Shown here piece by piece: positions 3,364-39,280 of a stretch of 64,000 nucleotides of DNA. Positions within the stretch are counted from its first letter, which is position 1; each line of letters starts with the position of its first letter. The notes beneath the pieces are model-generated. The model was not told the DNA's origin and searched no databases. It worked only from the letters and a program-made list of their open reading frames with translations. Position numbers and translations under genes: made by a program. Source of the stretch: Alphaproteobacteria bacterium (GTDB taxonomy: Bacteria; Pseudomonadota; Alphaproteobacteria; UBA2966); NCBI GenBank assembly GCA_964291395.2, contig OZ219856.1, forward strand, positions 928,001-992,000. Reading direction: 5' to 3'.

Positions 3364-4233
3364 TTACTGCGGCGGTGTGCCCCTCAGCGTCGTACGGTGC
3401 AGATAGCGGCGTTGCGGCAGCGCGTAGTCACAGATGGCGAGATGCTGAGTGGGGATGTTGTCCCACATCAGAAGATCTCCCGGGCGCCATTTGTGACGGT
3501 AGACGAATTCAGGCTTCGTGCAGTGGGTGCACAACTCCTCCAGCAGATCCCGCGCTTCATCCTCGGGAAGGCCGAGAATTCGCGCGGTCTGGCCTTCGTT
3601 GACGTAGATGCTCTTGCGCCCGGTGATCGGATGGGTACGCGCGATCTTGTGCACCACCGGCGGCGCCCTATCATGATGCCGGTCTTCCAGTTCGGCGTTC
3701 GCGTCGCCGTCCGCGACCAGCTTCGCATGGCGATTGGCGAGGCTGAACTCGGCCTTGAGGTCCGCGATCCGGCTTTTCATGCTGTCGGAGAGCGCGTCAT
3801 AGGCGGCGGACGTGCTGGCGAACAGGGTGTCACCCAACGGCTTGCCGTCCTCGTCATGCGGCACCTCGATGGCGTAGAGCAGCGAGCCGCGGCTCGGCAC
3901 GGCCATGTAGGACAAATCGGTATGCCAGTAGCGACCGGCATCGTAGATGCCGACGTGCCGGTCCCCGTCCATGACGTTGGAGACGATCAGGATTTCCGGA
4001 TGCTCGGGGTGCAGATACTGGTCGAGAACGTGCACTTCGAGATTCCCGAAGCGACGGCTGAACGCGAGGTGCTGGGCTTCGTCGATCGACTGCTCGCGAA
4101 ACAGCAGCACCGAATGCTCGTTGTAAGCCTCCTCGATGGCGGCGAAAGTTTCGTCGTCGAGGGTTTTAGACAGATCCACGCCGCGAACTTCGGCCCCGAG
4201 TGCCGCGTCGAACGTCCGTACATTCAGCGTCAT
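3364..4233 (-). CDS. TauD/TfdA family Fe(II)/2-oxoglutarate dioxygenase
   Basis: WHTDLSY, HPITGRKSIY, WDNIPTQH motifs. Confidence 0.93.
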   Translation of the reverse strand: MTLNVRTFDAALGAEVRGVDLSKTLDDETFAAIEEAYNEHSVLLFREQSIDEAQHLAFSRRFGNLEVHVLDQYLHPEHPEILIVSNVMDGDRHVGIYDAGRYWHTDLSYMAVPSRGSLLYAIEVPHDEDGKPLGDTLFASTSAAYDALSDSMKSRIADLKAEFSLANRHAKLVADGDANAELEDRHHDRAPPVVHKIARTHPITGRKSIYVNEGQTARILGLPEDEARDLLEELCTHCTKPEFVYRHKWRPGDLLMWDNIPTQHLAICDYALPQRRYLHRTTLRGTPPQ

Positions 4234-21018: not shown

Positions 21019-21095
21019 ATCGATCCTAACGTGGTCTCCGGTGCCCAACGAGGACTAATTCACCAAACATCCAGCGCTTCGTCTTTCGATGATGA

Positions 21096-21121
21096 AAACA
21101 GCTCAGGCTTGAGTCTGTGCC
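21096..21121 (+). repeat. 26-bp direct repeat, copy 2
   Basis: AAACAGCTCAGGCTTGAGTCTGTGCC. Confidence 0.9.
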
Positions 21122-24952: not shown

Positions 24953-25010
24953 GCGGCTGTTGAGCCAAGCCGAGGCGGCGGAGATACCGGGGGTCTCGGA
25001 GCGCACCTTC
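24953..25010 (+). pseudogene. Transposase HTH remnant (ISNCY/IS481-like)
   Basis: RLLSQAEAAEIPGVSERTF. Confidence 0.5.
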
Positions 25011-25044
25011 CCGCCCGGCGACCGAAGGGCAAGATAAAGGGCAT
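25005..25044 (+). repeat. 40-bp direct repeat, copy 1 (pair with 26186-26225)
   Basis: ACCTTCCCGCCCGGCGACCGAAGGGCAAGATAAAGGGCAT, 38/40 identical to copy 2. Confidence 0.9.
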
Positions 25045-26185: not shown

Positions 26186-26225
26186 ACCTTCCCGCCCGGC
26201 GACCGAAGGGCAGGATAAGGGGCAT
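26186..26225 (+). repeat. 40-bp direct repeat, copy 2
   Basis: ACCTTCCCGCCCGGCGACCGAAGGGCAGGATAAGGGGCAT. Confidence 0.9.
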
Positions 26226-28583: not shown

Positions 28584-29270
28584 ATGATGCCTTTTCTCAC
28601 CCCCGTGGATATTGCCGCGATCCTTTGGTTTTTCGGCCTTTGGGTTGGCTACAACCGGATCGCGGACAGCGAGCGGCTGCGGCACAAATCGGTCATGGGC
28701 GTGATCCAGGAACATCGTATCCGCTGGATGCGCGAGATGCTGAACCGCGACATGCGCATGGTGGACACCATGATCCTCAATCACCTTCAGGGCGGCATCG
28801 GGCTGTTCGCCTCCACCAGCATCCTGGCCGTCGGCGGCCTCATCGCCGCGCTTGGCGCTACCGACAAGGCCGTCGCCGTGCTCTCCGATCTGCCCCTCGT
28901 CGGGGAAACGACCCGCCTCGAGTACGAGATGAAGGTCCTGCTCCTTCTGATGATCTTCGTCTACGCGTTCTTCAAATTCGTCTGGTCCTATCGGCTCTAC
29001 GGCTTTTGCGCCGTCATGGTCGGCGCCGTGCCCGCCAGCACCGATCTCAGCCCGGAAGCGGAGGTCCAGGCCGAACGGGCGGCCCGGATCAACGGCCTCG
29101 CCGGGAGGCATCAAAATCAGGGGCTGCGCGCGTTCTACTTCGCGCTTGCCGCTCTGGCCTGGTTTATCCACCCTGTCGCGTTCATCGTTGCGACGATGTG
29201 GGTGGTGGTCGTGCTCTATCGGCGCGATTTCCGGTCGCGTTCCCAGCGGATCATGCGGGGCGACACCTGA
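28584..29270 (+). CDS. DUF599 family membrane protein
   Basis: FASTSIL, YAFFKFVWSYR, GLRAFYF motifs; RBS GGAGG. Confidence 0.88.
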   Translation: MMPFLTPVDIAAILWFFGLWVGYNRIADSERLRHKSVMGVIQEHRIRWMREMLNRDMRMVDTMILNHLQGGIGLFASTSILAVGGLIAALGATDKAVAVLSDLPLVGETTRLEYEMKVLLLLMIFVYAFFKFVWSYRLYGFCAVMVGAVPASTDLSPEAEVQAERAARINGLAGRHQNQGLRAFYFALAALAWFIHPVAFIVATMWVVVVLYRRDFRSRSQRIMRGDT

Positions 29271-29449
29271 CCGGATCCTATCCGGAAAATCTGTTTCCTG
29301 GGCTGTCGCGGGCGGCGGGTGAACGGCCATTGTGGCACCGTGGCAGAAATATCACATCCGGGAACATTCCATGACCGGCGCGCGGTAACGGTTTGTGCCT
29401 GTGCGCCCGTGTTCCTATAAATTCGGTCGTCACGCATTTACTCAAGAGG

Positions 29450-29464
29450 TTCCGATAATGAAAA
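29450..29464 (+). repeat. 15-bp inverted-repeat partner of the 30729-30752 site, overlapping the porin ATG
   Basis: TTCCGATAATGAAAA vs reverse complement of 30738-30752, TTCCGACAATGAAAA (14/15). Confidence 0.7.
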
Positions 29465-30575
29465 CAGTAAAGCAACGGCTTCTGCCTTTTGCCACCAGCG
29501 CCCTGGTGGCTGCCGCATCCATGGCAGGAGGGGCCGCGAACGCCGAGGCGATGAAGCCGCCCTGTCGGTCGAGCGGTTACTACTAACCGACCGACACATG
29601 GCCGACGAAGTCGGGTCAGGATGGCGACGGCCGTATCTCCAGGGGCATGACTCGGAAGTATTTTCAACGGATCCGGCGCCCCTCGACAACGGCATCAAGA
29701 TCGCCGCCGTTGGCGGAGTTCGAGGTTCATGGGCTGGTGGCGTTGCGGCGACACTGGATCAGCCTTCGGGCGGCTGGGGCACCGCCTTCAGGCTGGGATG
29801 CCCGGACGGGCGTAGCAAGCCCAGACCCGCCGGCGCGGCCTATGGGCGGTTATGCGGCGTCACATCAGGCGTGCAGACCGGTGGTTCAAGGGGCCGGACA
29901 TTGATTTCAAGGGATGTGCGTTCCGTTGCACCTTGGGTGGAACGAACCTCGATGCCGGGAAATGAGCCGACCAAGGCCACTACTTCTCGCCCCGCTTCAA
30001 CGGCTTCCAGTTCGCCGTGTAGCGTACCGTCCGTCGATCACAGACGAAAAGGCCGCGAACGAGGACCGGCACAGACGAGTATCACAAGCGAGTCGCCCGT
30101 CTTTACTCCGGTTGACGGTGCCGAACGTAACGGCGAGTTCGGGCGGCCGTATCAGCGCCACCGTTGCCGCACAGGGATAGGCCGACCCCGATATGCGGCG
30201 GAAGGCGGTCCCGACTACGAGCACGTGGTGGTCGGCTGGTCATCGCTCAGCGCTATGGGCTTCACCGTCGGCGGCCGCATCTGCCAATGAGGGCCGAGAA
30301 TGGTGCCCACAACGACACCAACTCCTTCGATGCGCGCTCGGCGTCTCATGTACGGTCAAGGGCCGTGGAAGGTCAGCGTGCCGACGTGTTCTCAGGCTCG
30401 ATCAAGCCCGGGGACGAGTACAACGCTTGGTCCCGCGGCTACACGGTCGGTCCGGGGCTGAAGGCGGTCATCGCCGGATTCCAAGACCGCGACCTCTATG
30501 GACCCCGAGGGGGATGCCGGCAGCGTGGACGTAAACGTGCCTTCATCCGCTGGCGTGGCGGCACTTCGTGGAAAG
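29458..30575 (+). pseudogene. Alphaproteobacterial porin, heavily decayed
   Basis: Signal peptide (ATSALVAA), LDNGI at 29682, YFSPRFNGFQF at 29981 followed by TAG, GFTVGG, GYTVGPGL at 30437, in different frames. Confidence 0.8.
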
Positions 30576-30651
30576 TCTTGAGTGGCCCCCAGAACAGCCG
30601 CCTGACCGACTTCGAACCCCGTCCTGCCTTTATCGTGGACTCGGTCGGGAG

Positions 30652-30681
30652 AGGGCGGTTCCTTCGGGGGCCGCCCTTTTT
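30652..30681 (+). terminator. Rho-independent terminator of the porin gene
   Basis: AGGGCGGTTCC-TTCG-GGGGCCGCCCT followed by T run. Confidence 0.85.
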
Positions 30682-30728
30682 GGGCCATCGCCCGAGCCTG
30701 TCACGCCGAACCCAAAAGGCACGATTCC

Positions 30729-30752
30729 TTCCGATAATTTTCATTGTCGGAA
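30729..30752. other. Candidate tyrosine-recombinase core site (9-6-9)
   Basis: TTCCGATAA-TTTTCA-TTGTCGGAA, about 270 bp from the recombinase stop. Confidence 0.6.
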
Positions 30753-31024
30753 CGTGCGCGCGTCTTGTTCACGCCGCCGCATGTGCCGCTTCTCCCAGGA
30801 TTCGAGCGGGTACGGCGCGACTGCTCGCAGGATGCCGATGTCGTTCCGTCCCGACCGATCGTGCCCGCCGACGGGCCCGACACGCCGCGGCAGCGCCGAT
30901 GCGAGAGGCCGAAGCCGCGGTGGCCGTTATCCGCGTCGCCGGGCCGTTCGAGGCCTTGGGAGGTCCGAGTTGCGCCGGCCGAAGACACCCGCTGGACGAA
31001 GGAGGTGCCGAAGCCCGGCACGTC

Positions 31025-32086
31025 CTAGGCGCATTCTCGCGGACTTGTCCGGCAATCGCAGGTTTCGCGCCGGCAAATGCCGCAAAGAATATCGCCCTGG
31101 GATCCCGGGCCGTGCCTCAATCGCGCGACCGCCCCGCGTGCCGCGAGCTGGCTGCGGGCATAGCGGCCCGGCATGGACGGCGACTGCCAGCGTCCGGCGA
31201 CCTGCATCTCGACCAGCCCGGCCCCGGCCGCGGCGAGGGATTGCGCGGACCCGATCCGGAGCGAGTGACCGGAAACCCGACCCTCGATACCGGCTTCGGC
31301 GGCGCGCGCCTGGATGATGGCGCGGGCGGCGCGATCCGTGATCGCTTCGGCCAGGACCACCCCGTTGCAGCGGATGCGCCGGAACAACGGGCCGTCATGG
31401 ATGCCGCCTGCGTCGCGCCACGTCGTGATCCTCCGCATGGTCGGTTCGCCGACGAACAATACCGCGCCTTCTCCTTCCTGGTCCGTCTTGCTGCGATGCA
31501 CGGTGAGCCGGCCGGACCCGTCCGCCTCGGTCTCGAGGTCGGCAACTTGGGTGGCGACGGCCTCGGACATGCGGAGCAGGCAATCGCTGGTGAGCGCGAC
31601 AAGCGCAGCATCGCGAAGCCCGGCAAGCTTCCTGTCGCTATTGGCTGCCACGGCGGCAACGGTATCGGCTTCGGACCATTGGAGGCCCCTTACTTGGCCG
31701 CGGCCACGCCCGCGCCCCTCGCGGCGGATCCCGGCAAGCACCCGAAAGGTTTGCTCGCCGACCGGCGCCGGATGCCCGACCAGCTTCGCGGCAGTCTTCA
31801 CGGCGGCAACGGTAAGCGCGATCGTTTCTGGCGCGAGTCCGGCTTCATGGCGCTCGGCGAGATAGTCGGCGATCGCGACGTCGTTGGGTTCCCGACCTTG
31901 TTCGGCAAGCCAGGAGTCGAGGCTTGCGAGCGCAGCGCGATAGGTGGCAATCGTGCGGGGAGCAAGGGCCGCACCGGCGAGGCGCTGCGCGGCTTCAGAG
32001 AGCGGCGCTACGGCTTTCGCCGGAAATTCGGCACTCGAAGCGGTTATTGCGGCGGACAACGCGGTTGCTTTGGCAGTGCGTGGCAT
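31025..32086 (-). CDS. Cre-like tyrosine recombinase
   Basis: GLRDAAL, LLRMSE (R), RSKTDQ (K), GHSLR (HxxR), GRW (W), PGRY (Y); catalytic set complete. Confidence 0.93.
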   Translation of the reverse strand: MPRTAKATALSAAITASSAEFPAKAVAPLSEAAQRLAGAALAPRTIATYRAALASLDSWLAEQGREPNDVAIADYLAERHEAGLAPETIALTVAAVKTAAKLVGHPAPVGEQTFRVLAGIRREGRGRGRGQVRGLQWSEADTVAAVAANSDRKLAGLRDAALVALTSDCLLRMSEAVATQVADLETEADGSGRLTVHRSKTDQEGEGAVLFVGEPTMRRITTWRDAGGIHDGPLFRRIRCNGVVLAEAITDRAARAIIQARAAEAGIEGRVSGHSLRIGSAQSLAAAGAGLVEMQVAGRWQSPSMPGRYARSQLAARGAVARLRHGPGSQGDILCGICRRETCDCRTSPRECA

Positions 32087-32442
32087 AACGTTTCCCTGTA
32101 GACAACTTCCGATCGGCACGGTCCTCGAGTGGATCGGAAACGGACAGCAGGCGACGCATGCCGACACCCCGCAGTGTGGAATGTCGGTCTCCGAAAGGGC
32201 AGCCGTTGCGCCCCGGATCGACAACCCGCCGAGAGATGACAGCCGGTGCGTCATTGATTGGGTCTCGCCGGTTGGCTCGCCGCATCGTCCGAGCCACGTG
32301 CAAGACCAGACCCAATATAGGTCCCGATGCGGAAAAGAAAATGTCGTGCCGGCATACCTCCATACGAGCGCGGCATGTCGCCGGACCGGCCCTTCGCCCC
32401 GTTCCGCTCCTTCGTTCCGGAGAAACGGCCGGGCATGTGCCG

Positions 32443-32493
32443 ACAGGAAAACGGACCGTGGTGAGACGGAAATCACCTTGCGGTCAGGGCCGG
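32443..32493 (+). repeat. 51-bp perfect direct repeat, copy 1
   Basis: ACAGGAAAACGGACCGTGGTGAGACGGAAATCACCTTGCGGTCAGGGCCGG. Confidence 0.97.
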
Positions 32494-32747
32494 TCGCCTG
32501 ATCGATTCGGTCCTATCATCCGAGGATCGACCGCTGCTCGGGATCAAGTACAGCTGCTTCGACGACGTAGACCGCCGCGAAAGTACATAGGGCCCGGTTG
32601 CCCGAGCCCTATGTCGGCCAGCTTGGCCGACCCCGGAGCGCAATGCTCTGATAATCGGAACATGGCGCTGTCGCCCGGACGGGTCAAGAACGTCGGCTGT
32701 GCAACCTGTGCGTTGCATCGTTTGCCTCGGTGTGTATATAGTTGCGC

Positions 32748-32930
32748 ATGTTGCGCAGTAGCCGGGACATCGTCAAGCGTCTCAAGGCCGAAGGGTTCGA
32801 ACTGGTGAGCGTGAAGGGATCGCACCATAAATACAGAAAGGGCACGATCACCGTGGTCGTGCCGCATCCGAAGAAGGACTTGCCCGTGGGCACCGCCCGG
32901 AGCATCGCCAGGCGGGTGGGCTGGAACTGA
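32748..32930 (+). CDS. hicA: HicA mRNA interferase toxin
   Basis: GFELVSVKGSHHKY...VVPHPKKDLPVGT. Confidence 0.93.
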   Translation: MLRSSRDIVKRLKAEGFELVSVKGSHHKYRKGTITVVVPHPKKDLPVGTARSIARRVGWN

Positions 32931-32940
32931 GGAGACAGTC

Positions 32941-33330
32941 GTGCACTACGTCGCCGTCATAGACAAGGACCCTGGAAGCGCCTACGGGGTCCGGTTTCCG
33001 GAGGTGCCGGGATGCTATTCGGCCGCCGACAGCTTCGATGACATCGTTCCCAACGCGATCGAGGCGTTGAGCCTGTTCTTCGAGGACGGTGAGCCTGTGC
33101 CACCGCGCGGCATCGAAGCGGTGCGTGAGCAAGTTGCCGGGAGCATCGCGGAGGGCGCGGTGCTGATGATGATTCCCTATGTGCGGGACCGGAAGCGGGT
33201 CGTGCGGGTGAACTTGAGCCTGGAGAAGGGGTTCCTCGATACCCTCGACGAGGCGGCGCGCATGCGTGGCATGACGCGCTCCGCGTTCGTTCAGAAAGCA
33301 GCCACGCGAGAGATACTCGACCCAGCCTGA
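32941..33330 (+). CDS. hicB: HicB antitoxin with C-terminal RHH
   Basis: YGVRFPEVPGCYSAAD; RVNLSL...GMTRSAF. Confidence 0.93.
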   Translation: MHYVAVIDKDPGSAYGVRFPEVPGCYSAADSFDDIVPNAIEALSLFFEDGEPVPPRGIEAVREQVAGSIAEGAVLMMIPYVRDRKRVVRVNLSLEKGFLDTLDEAARMRGMTRSAFVQKAATREILDPA

Positions 33331-33479
33331 AACGGGCAAAGTCGTCGGCTTCGGGGTAAATCTCGACGCGCCGCGCCGCGAGGCCGCCAACGACAGCGAT
33401 CACGCTCTGATGCTCGGGGGCGCCCGTGCTCGGCTTTCCCGCTTCCCGGCCCGGCAGCCGCGCCGGGAAGCTTCCGCCA

Positions 33480-33530
33480 ACAGGAAAACGGACCGTGGTG
33501 AGACGGAAATCACCTTGCGGTCAGGGCCGG
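33480..33530 (+). repeat. 51-bp perfect direct repeat, copy 2
   Basis: Identical to 32443-32493. Confidence 0.97.
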
Positions 33531-35627: not shown

Positions 35628-36042
35628 GTTGTCGGAAAGGTGGCGTCGGGCTCGGGGTGCGGCCAGGTGCATGATCGGGTGTCGATCCGGCAACCCGGGG
35701 CCCGGAAGAGTCCTTTACCCGCTACCTCACGATGACAAGCTCCTCCCCGGGTACCGGCGTGTTGTTCGCCGCGCCTCTGGCAATGACGGCCTCGCGTCCG
35801 CCATGCTGTTCGATAAGCCGTGCCTGATCGGAGAGCGCCCTTTCGTTGATCTCTTCCGGATCGATCATCTTCAGGAGGTCTTCCTTCAAGCCGTTCAACG
35901 TTCCGGAATGGCTTGGATCGGCCGCGACGTTGTGCAGTTCTTCGGGATCGGCCTCCATGTCGTAGAGTTCCGAATCGTACCCGCCGGCATAGTGCAAGTA
36001 CTTGTAGCGATCGGTACGAAGCATGTAGACGCCGGAAATCGC
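35628..36042 (-). repeat. 415-bp duplicate of 40791-41205 (sulfatase 3' end plus downstream DNA)
   Basis: Near-identical; at least 3 substitutions seen. Confidence 0.95.
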
Positions 36043-36059
36043 CCTGGTCCGCCGGCTCG

Positions 36060-36127
36060 ACCCAGCTTGGCCGAGAAACCGGCAATGCACTAACATTCAA
36101 AGTGGACCACTCAGTGGGGGCCGGTCA
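36060..36127 (+). mobile_element. Orphan IS3 right end
   Basis: Matches 39114-39181, ending ...CTCAGTGGGGGCCGGTCA. Confidence 0.9.
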
Positions 36128-37974: not shown

Positions 37975-38253
37975 ATGGCAAGGAAGCGTTACAAGCCGGA
38001 GGAGATCGTGAGCCTGCTGCGACGGGCTGAGGTGCTGCACGGGCAGGGCATGTCGATGGCGGACGCGATCCGTCAGCTCGGGATCAGCGAGGTTACGTTT
38101 TATCGATGGCGAAAGGAGTATGCCGGGATGAGCGGCGATCAGCTTCGCCGCCTGAAGGAGCTTGAGAAGGAGAACGAGCGGCTGCGCCGTGCGGTCTCGG
38201 ACCTGACGCTGGACAAGCAGATACTCAAGGAAGCCGCCCGGGGAAATTTCTGA
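37975..38253 (+). CDS. IS3 transposase OrfA
   Basis: HTH (LGISEVTFYRWRK) and leucine zipper (LKELEKENERL). Confidence 0.93.
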   Translation: MARKRYKPEEIVSLLRRAEVLHGQGMSMADAIRQLGISEVTFYRWRKEYAGMSGDQLRRLKELEKENERLRRAVSDLTLDKQILKEAARGNF

Positions 38254-39147
38254 GCCCCTCGCGCCGCCGCCAGTGCATCGACCATGTCCGTGACCGGCTC
38301 GGGATCTCGGAAAGGCGGGCCTGCAGGGTGCTGGGGCAGCATCGCTCGACCCAGCGCCGGACCCCCTGCGGCCGTGAGGACGAGGACCGTCTGGTCGCGG
38401 ACATGATCGAGCTGGCTCGCCAGTACGGTCGTTACGGCTACCGCCGGATCGCGGCCCTGCTGCGCGACGCCGGCTGGCAGGTCAACGACAAGCGGGTCGA
38501 GCGCCTGTGGCGGCGCGAGGGGCTGAAAGTGCCAACCAAACAACCGAAGCGGGGCCGTCTGTGGCTGAACGACGGCTCCTGTGTCCGGCTGCGTGCCGAG
38601 CGGGCGGACCATGTCTGGTCCTATGACTTCGTGCATCACCGGACCCATGACGGCCGGGCCTTCCGTACGCTCAACGTCCTGGACGAGTTCACGCGCGAAA
38701 GCCTGGCGATCCGGGTTCGCAGGAAGCTCTCCTCGACCGACGTCATCGATGTGCTGACCGACCTGTTCATCCTGCGTGGTATCCCGGCCTGGATCCGCTC
38801 CGACAACGGCCCGGAGTTCGTCGCCGAGGCCGTGCGGCAATGGATCGCCGCAGTCGGCGCCCGCACCGCCTTCATCGAGCCGGGCTCGCCCTGGGAGAAC
38901 GGCTACATCGAGAGCTTCAATGCCAGGCTGCGCGACGAGCTCCTGAACGGAGAGATCTTCTACACCCTCACGGAGGCAAGGATCATGAATCGAATCGTGG
39001 CGGTGCCATTACAACGCGATCCGCCCACATGGCAGCCTGGGATGCCGGCCGCCGGCGCCGGAGACGATTATCTTACCAAGCTGGCCGTCCGGCTCCGCTA
39101 CGCTACGCCGGCCACCCAGCTTGGCCGAGAAACCGGCAATGCACTAA
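38250..39147 (+). CDS. IS3 transposase OrfB (DDE), extra 1-bp insertion near 38988
   Basis: WSYDF, SDNGPEF, PWENGYIESFN; tail IESWR.HYN..RPH shifts frame. Confidence 0.88.
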
Positions 39148-39280
39148 CATTCAAAGTGGACCACTCAGTGGGGGCCGGTCAGCAGGTAATGACCCAACTC
39201 GGACTTTCGCTGTCCCAAAAGCAATGACCAATAGGAACCTCGTCGTCGCACTTCGGTCGGGCACTCGTTGCGTTTGCCTC

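Follow-up and report, generated by a model that had tools for sequence, protein, structure and literature searches.

The window analysed here, a 64,000-nucleotide stretch of an alphaproteobacterial genome (assembly GCA_964291395.2, contig OZ219856.1, positions 928,001 to 992,000), contains a porin gene that is broken in the assembly and, downstream of it on the opposite strand, an intact gene for a Cre-like tyrosine recombinase. A one-armed recombination site spans the start codon of the porin gene, and a full, two-armed site with the same spacer lies in inverted orientation between the two genes (Table 1). The explanation that we consider best, and probably correct, is that the Cre-type recombinase and this lox-like site pair form a switch by which the porin segment is inverted.

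Table 1. Features of the porin and recombinase locus, with positions numbered from the first letter of the window
Feature	Position	Strand	Basis and remarks
Possible porin promoter (TTGTGC, 17 nt, TATAAA)	29393–29421	+	Read by eye, tentative; outside the invertible segment
Shine-Dalgarno-like AAGAGG	29444–29449	+	Sequence, function putative; 8 nt before the porin ATG, outside the invertible segment
Left one-armed recombination site	29450–29464	+	Match to the family consensus; public flipped junction 29456/30745 with eight shared letters
Porin gene, broken in the assembly	29458–30581	+	Porin_4 homologues; at least 12 frameshifts and one stop; stop of the last frame at 30579–30581
Terminator-like hairpin (GGGCGGTTCC-TTCG-GGGGCCGCCC, then TTTTT)	30653–30685	+	Inside the invertible segment
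Full two-armed recombination site	30729–30752		Family consensus; 272 nt past the recombinase stop codon
Cre-like tyrosine recombinase, 353 aa, intact	31025–32086	−	Pfam, PDB sequence matches, catalytic residues
Split palindrome (TTCCGATC-17 nt-GATCGGAA)	32107–32139		21–53 nt upstream of the recombinase start; same arm core, spacing unfit for crossover

The 15-nt left site reads TTCCGATAATGAAAA on the forward strand and is composed of a 9-nt arm, TTCCGATAA (29450–29458), and the spacer TGAAAA (29459–29464); the porin ATG (29458–29460) is made up of the final A of the arm and the TG of the spacer. The full site is the palindrome TTCCGATAA-TTTTCA-TTGTCGGAA, and its spacer and right arm (30738–30752), when reverse-complemented, give TTCCGACAATGAAAA, which is one base off the left site. 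This match of 14 of 15 positions, pointed out in a preliminary description of the window, was confirmed by direct comparison of the sequences; with the preceding G added, the inverted repeat is 16 nt long and matches at 15 positions. The two spacers are identical and the arms agree in eight of nine positions. With up to two mismatches allowed, three matches were found in the window, as against a mean of 0.04 in 100 shuffled sequences. In the whole genome (three contigs, 4.16 Mb, both strands), four places lie within two mismatches, and these two sites are the only ones within one. Judged by the 14 core arm positions, the full site is, moreover, the sole one in the genome with at most one mismatch, where 0.25 would be expected. 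Plain 9-6-9 palindromes are common locally, in DNA of 64% G+C (25 in 10.1 kb, with up to one mismatch and spacers of 5–9 nt), and so the signal lies not in the palindrome itself but in its specific A+T-rich sequence, in its partner, and in its match to the site of the recombinase family. A third look-alike in the window, TTTCGATGATGAAAA at 21084–21098 on the forward strand, has two mismatches, shares a following CAG with the porin start, and precedes a pyruvate carboxylase gene; its likeness is probably due to chance, one of the mismatches falling on an arm position at which the family does not vary.

The outcome of crossing over in the spacer was simulated. The left product is the perfect palindrome TTCCGATAA-TGAAAA-TTATCGGAA, and on the right, past the end of the recombinase gene, the minus strand of the product reads ...CACGTTCCGACAATGAAAACAGTAAAGCAA... 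The two products proposed in the preliminary description, a perfect palindrome on the left and a rebuilt ATGAAAA on the right in line with the recombinase gene, are thereby reproduced. To judge from the sequence, such a crossover would cut the porin coding sequence off from the ribosome-binding site and from the region upstream.

Both orientations of the segment exist in nature: the window assembly has one, and contigs from public metagenomes (X1, X2, and X16) have the other. Parts of the stretch are contained in 20 public runs from 14 studies, and four of these runs (X15, X1, X2, and X16) were compared, all as contigs. In X1, X2, and X16, which belong to three studies, position 29456 is joined to position 30745 on the opposite strand, with eight letters, AATGAAAA, fitting both sides; the shorter sides of these joints are 53, 53, and 100 letters long, respectively. 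This joint is exactly the predicted left junction of the flipped form. A contig from X1 follows the minus strand down from 31100 as far as 30738, beyond which it matches 29491 onward on the opposite strand. When a 6-nt deletion variant at 29485, which is present in other contigs, is allowed for, its remaining 51 letters fit 29465–29484 and 29491–29521, and we read this 29491/30738 joint as the right junction of the flipped form. A look for the inverted segment in related DNA, as suggested in the preliminary description, thus yields the predicted left junction in three runs and the right junction in one. A variant left joint, from 29434 to 30753 on opposite strands, is found in X15 and X2 and fits a flipped strain without 14 nt that include most of AAGAGG. 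As a repeat of 16 nt is too short for an assembler with k = 31 to join the strands, the joints are not considered artefacts. Long pieces of the locus are found in X2, which is labelled a sponge metagenome, at ~96–99%.

The recombinase matches the Pfam families Phage_integrase (E 3.4e-12) and Phage_int_SAM_1, and its 17 sequence matches in the PDB at E ≤ 0.01 are all Cre or Tre chains (best E 1.3e-18). Residues R172, E175, K200, H274, R277, W300, and Y309 are invariant across 22 aligned members of the family, and the catalytic residues align with the corresponding motifs of Cre in an HMMER alignment. The NCBIfam models for XerC and XerD give 45 bits, against cut-offs of 330–335. By sequence, then, the enzyme would be classed as Cre-type, nearer to Cre than to Xer or phage integrases. 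It is encoded by a single gene in the genome, and its homologues P0001 and P0002 are 97% and 85% identical to it, respectively. A Cys-rich C-terminal extension, encoded by the last 27 codons (31025–31105), is common only to this recombinase and P0001; the other 20 aligned recombinases stop ~25–30 residues sooner or carry unrelated tails. The split palindrome upstream of the gene may be an operator or, as another guess, the decayed site of a former cassette with the recombinase gene inside, like that of locus L059 described below.

Relatives of the recombinase are numerous and widely distributed. A protein search gave 1369 relatives at E ≤ 1e-10 among 8000 scored candidates, and a relative is encoded by 447 of 607 candidate stretches from species-representative genomes and by 467 of 600 stretches from metagenome contigs. 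The best 80 of the 447 genome relatives stem nearly all from metagenome-assembled genomes, often with several copies per genome, and the titles of their records name Poribacteria, Latescibacterota, Acidobacteriota, Dadabacteria, Thermodesulfobacteriota, and Poriferihabitaceae, among others; one family record is titled Nitrosopumilus, which a binning error may explain. No homologue was found at E 1e-50 in 400 other genomes of the same class. Within the order, one genome only has a relative, at 34%, and a search of the congeners G001–G005 found the recombinase in none of them.

The target of the family was read from 160 homologous loci. In 43 of these loci, 55 full sites yield the arm consensus T-R-R-C-T-T-C-C-G-A-T-A-A, 13 nt long, beside six variable bases. 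The family target consists of a 13-nt arm ending in TTCCGATAA, the six variable bases, which are flanked by an invariant A and T, and the inverted arm. The left arm in the window agrees with all nine core positions of this consensus, and the right arm of the full site has a C, a rarity among the arms of the family (1 of 110). At the place of the fourth arm, 29465–29473, the window has CAGTAAAGC, which is porin coding sequence and matches the arm consensus at about one of nine positions (counted manually); the left site is consequently one-armed, which bears out a caveat of the preliminary description.

Pairs of sites with a common spacer were found 18 times in these loci (17 independent, L097 and L098 being the same sequence), where 0.74 would be expected by chance, and all 18 are inverted and none direct. 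The spacers vary among loci and co-vary within a pair. The distance between the two sites is 167–265 bp in 12 pairs and in L097/L098. In L059, the pair is 1320 bp apart and has the recombinase gene inside, and pairs of 2704–2866 bp lie downstream of the recombinase gene, as in the window, in L016 (5513–8379), L025 (5974–8823), and L031 (5381–8085), all three from Acidobacteriota-titled genomes. The large segments of L016 and L031 contain a gene for a signal-peptide protein of 600–650 aa without a Pfam family, together with a small gene of the IS1595 zinc-ribbon type. Pairs of a full site and a one-armed or degenerate one occur in L042 and L097/L098 as well.

Flipped segments are also seen on comparison of family members with one another. 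For the paralogues L043 and L047, which come from one genome record, positions 3676–3881 of L043 align in reverse with positions 3802–3597 of L047 at 91%, and the flanks align forward; the same pattern is observed in L026/L043, L041/L043, and L035/L081. The flipped piece of L043/L047 is 206 nt long, is located ~120–320 nt upstream of the recombinase start, and is bounded by CCGATAA-6 nt-TTATCGG sites, the spacers of which are mutually reverse-complementary. Within the L047 segment, a promoter-like element, TTGACA-16 nt-TATATT, read by eye, points at the recombinase gene. Segments of 168–179 bp upstream of paralogous recombinases, with co-varying spacers and in both orientations, were noted at L043 3683–3886 and L047 3597–3800, and L026, L035, L040, L041, L049, L052, L063, and L081 are loci similar to these two.

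The porin gene itself was compared with its intact homologue in the same-genus genome G002, a Porin_4 protein of 376 aa. A frameshift-aware codon alignment has 12 frameshifts, passes one stop, and leaves 170 of 345 codons identical, and the usual C-terminal end of a porin is lost; the gene had been called a pseudogene in the preliminary description, and for the assembled sequence this holds. The part that encodes the signal peptide is intact (42 codons, to 29583) and shows 76% identity, with an indel of two residues, to the N-terminus of P0123, a metagenomic Porin_4 protein that is intact and 369 aa long. The mature part of P0123 is of another type, and the protein could not be placed at this locus. 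When compared with 29855–30127, one contig from X1 has 15 substitutions yet 18 gap letters. So high a share of indels is unusual for natural decay, and part of the damage to the porin gene may be poor consensus in a heterogeneous segment. Depth at 88% likeness is little or none in the bins 29683–29869 and 30057–30617 in all four runs, and contigs join across from 29531/29559 to 29977, from 30012 to 30351, and from 30374 to 30647, with unidentified letters between. The bins of low cover hint at a diverged porin allele in other strains or at a poor porin consensus in the window, and prove neither. In G005, seven porin-like matches are clustered on contig C2 (444578–452309), several of them with internal stops, and broken porin copies are thus not peculiar to the window.

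Porin starts of the genus were inspected for the arm, a comparison that the preliminary description had put forward for orthologues without the recombinase. Four congeners supplied six starts (that of G003 was not recovered), which share a conserved leader, and none of the six has the TTCCGATA arm before the ATG; this attempt at refutation therefore failed, and the arm is specific to the recombinase-bearing lineage. The porin paralogue in the same genome (contig C1 94332–95456) likewise has no arm. A sequence that resembles the reversed arm, TTATCGGA, is found 14 nt before the ATG of the G002 porin and was rejected as a candidate, as it is part of the conserved 5′ leader of the congeners (..CGGAGGATCAC..GAATG).

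These observations can be rationalized with the following mechanism. The recombinase would recognize a lox-like site with 13-nt arms ending in TTCCGATAA around six variable bases, and the full and the one-armed site would be brought together in a synapse by two dimers of the enzyme, with the weak arm presumably aided by cooperative binding. Strand exchange inside TGAAAA would then flip 29465–30737, a segment of 1.27 kb that comprises the porin coding sequence and the terminator-like hairpin (a ViennaRNA fold of 30641–30700 gives −35.8 kcal/mol). In the assembled orientation, the coding sequence stands behind the putative ribosome-binding site and the upstream region, a state that would be ON were the gene intact. 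In the flipped orientation, the ATG would be kept, placed behind the recombinase gene and in line with it and preceded by ...GCGCGCACGTTCCGACA, which has no purine-rich stretch and no ribosome-binding site. The upstream region would read antisense, facing an 82-codon frame without a family match, and the state would be OFF or low.

Inversion of the porin segment at these sites is supported by three independent lines: the family arm, the congener starts without this arm, and the flipped junctions in public contigs. The preliminary description had held that the adjacent Cre-like enzyme inverts, or once inverted, the porin; as to the inversion, the flipped junctions and the inverted family pairs uphold this statement, and the role of the adjacent enzyme as catalyst we infer, as we do the reversibility and frequency of flipping and its effect on expression.

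Several points weigh against a working switch. The left site has a single recognizable arm, and this recombinase family is not known to act on such sites; in L107, a full site is paired over 1901 bp with an arm that has one mismatch, at an ATGA stop/start overlap of two small genes, and this pair is not counted as a precedent, since it may be the single chance match expected. A consensus scan of 29150–32500 for promoters and terminators found neither a promoter nor a hairpin, and the first of these two results belongs here. With its porin gene broken, the strain would draw no present selective benefit from the switch unless the breaks are consensus errors. The contigs with flipped junctions differ from the window by a few percent (record 20 of X16 has seven differences and two gaps in 246 nt), and among the matches listed no row has both orientations in one run, the contigs giving no proportions. 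Since the flipped contigs are diverged and no mixture is seen in a single run, the orientations may be fixed differences between strains. Finally, the arm of the switch is one arm of a chromosomal dif-like site, and a host Xer enzyme is conceivable.

The likeliest alternative is that the inversion is real but was single or rare, so that the orientations are fixed between strains and the locus described here is a relic, with a dead porin, a one-armed site, and no ongoing switching. We regard it as a minor possibility, though not a negligible one. Besides the broken porin, the slight divergence of the strains with flipped junctions (~97% for record 20 of X16), and the lack of a within-sample mixture among the matches listed, it is favoured by the variant joint 29434/30753, the loss of 14 nt with most of the ribosome-binding site looking like decay. 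However, the reading frame of the recombinase and all of its catalytic residues are intact, the spacers are still identical and the arms alike in eight of nine positions though the segment between them is heavily altered, and related copies in other genomes have flipped repeatedly.

It is also very unlikely that XerC/XerD of the host recombine the sites in place of the Cre-like enzyme, with the arm TTATCGGAA being one arm of the chromosomal dif-like site. That site, TCGCATAA-TGTATA-TTATCGGAAAT, is located on contig C1 at 1441359–1441383 (the cumulative GC skew has its maximum 31 kb away, at 1472310), and its 21-nt core is present once in four of the five congeners. Xer enzymes require both types of arm, whereas the full site of the switch has the same arm twice and lacks the other dif arm. 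The switch site, at position 958729 of contig C1, is moreover far from the skew maximum, such site pairs adjoin a Cre-like gene in at least 16 loci from several phyla, and no such site is found at the porin genes of the congeners in which the dif-like site is present and the recombinase absent.

We find it scarcely credible that the sites serve a mobile element for attachment and that the recombinase, as its integrase, brought in the porin gene, the recombinase gene, or the nearby toxin-antitoxin modules. The mosaic character of the region, in which unique direct repeats border PIN and HicAB modules, the relocation of the DUF599 gene beside the porin relative to G003, and the spread of the recombinase family across phyla would suit it, but integration gives direct sites, whereas the orientation here, as in 18 of 18 family pairs, is inverted, and what is seen in the junction contigs is a flip and no excision. 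A chance resemblance, in which the left match is a ribosome-binding region followed by ATGAAAA and nothing recombines, has in its favour that seven of the 15 matching bases (ATGAAAA) are an ordinary porin start and that congener porins also open with ATGAAA, and is rendered extremely improbable by the flipped joints exactly at the shared 8-mer in three runs, by the orthologous starts without the arm, and by the shuffle statistics.

The neighbourhood of the locus is a mosaic in which an IS3-type element and modules of PIN and HicAB type occur. The hicA/hicB pair (32742–33330), immediately upstream of the recombinase gene, is flanked by a direct repeat of 55 nt (98%; 32439–32493 and 33476–33530), and contigs from the public runs end near 32585–32652 and 33346–33362. 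On the other side, a 40-nt direct repeat (95%; 25005–25044 and 26186–26225) flanks the region of a PIN-domain gene. Both repeats were rejected as related sites, being found nowhere else in the genome and being unlike the switch site. The DUF599 gene (28611–29270) beside the porin sits between two other genes in G003, and as those two genes are adjacent here (contig C1 1258843–1261183), the DUF599 gene has moved. An exact direct repeat of 68 nt (36060–36127 and 39114–39181) lies around the IS3-type transposase pair at 37975–39227 and has partial copies elsewhere in the genome; a C-terminal sulfatase fragment (35722–36096) adjoins it. An Rfam search over the window found a tRNA only.

The system is reminiscent of Cre/loxP in its enzyme, for which Cre and Tre are the only PDB relatives and in which Trp replaces the second His of the catalytic set, and in its site, which has two inverted arms of ~13 nt and, between them, a short asymmetric spacer, on the orientation of which the outcome depends. 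Targets of Cre-type recombinases have two inverted arms of 11–15 bp around an 8-bp spacer. Excerpts of Jelicic et al. 2023 (PMC10250229) give this 8-bp spacer and a G(T)-A-T(G)-A motif; if the invariant A and T are counted as spacer, the arm of the present family ends in GATA and its spacer is 8 bp long, which fits the motif and the spacer stated there. In contrast to Cre/loxP, identity to Cre is low, only six spacer positions are variable, and the reaction would be a chromosomal inversion beside a gene, in multi-copy families of uncultured bacteria, with one partner site that is single-armed and set in a start codon. Cre naturally serves in plasmid dimer resolution and phage circularisation, and to our knowledge little has been documented of what Cre-type recombinases do in nature beyond phages and plasmids. 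A literature search found no description of this recombinase family or of invertons in sponge symbionts, subscription journals lying outside its coverage.

Closer in layout are the vpma, vsp, and vsa systems of Mycoplasma (Xer1, Mbr, HvsR), in which, according to excerpts of PMC2268961, genes are flipped relative to a fixed promoter. As described there, these systems likewise have a tyrosine recombinase beside surface-protein genes, sites in the 5′ untranslated region or 5′ end, and whole coding sequences that are moved. They differ, within the same excerpts, in bringing several silent genes to one promoter for antigenic variation, whereas the window holds one porin without alternative cargo, a plain on/off arrangement. 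The recombinase lineage and the site are different ones, too, and the site in the window overlaps the start codon itself. The promoter invertons of E. coli fim, Bacteroides, and Clostridioides, as outlined in excerpts of PMC5903667, share a short segment bounded by inverted repeats, an adjoining tyrosine recombinase, and control of a surface component. Most members of the recombinase family, with their segments of 167–265 bp, resemble such promoter invertons, whereas in the window the promoter is fixed and the coding sequence flips. FimB and FimE need accessory proteins, unlike Cre-type enzymes. Phase and antigenic variation of Omp1 by site-specific inversion was reportedly described by Moses et al. 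in 1995 in Dichelobacter nodosus, which is alike in placing an outer-membrane protein under DNA inversion and differs in being a multi-gene system. This work on inversion control of an outer-membrane protein is cited in PMC5903667.

What emerges is a relative of Cre that acts, on the proposed reading, as a chromosomal invertase with a defined and conserved target, variable spacers, and natural flipped forms that are visible in public data. Beyond the locus itself, a wider picture suggests itself, which may just as well hold as fail: a family of Cre-type "plug-in" invertases that spreads horizontally, is present in multiple copies, and makes surface proteins of sponge-associated microbes phase-variable, and with it a start-codon design not described before, in which a one-armed lox-like site in the porin ATG switches the whole coding sequence instead of a promoter and leaves the protein unconstrained by a second arm. 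For the source genome, the cargo gene of which is broken, the locus is mainly an example. If the family does phase-vary porins and other surface proteins of sponge symbionts, strong fluctuating selection would act on the cell surface, for which phages or host recognition are possible, and in both cases speculative, causes. The family would also provide a set of natural orthogonal lox-like sites, and the one-armed site embedded in a start codon would indicate how little target a coding sequence needs in order to be switchable.

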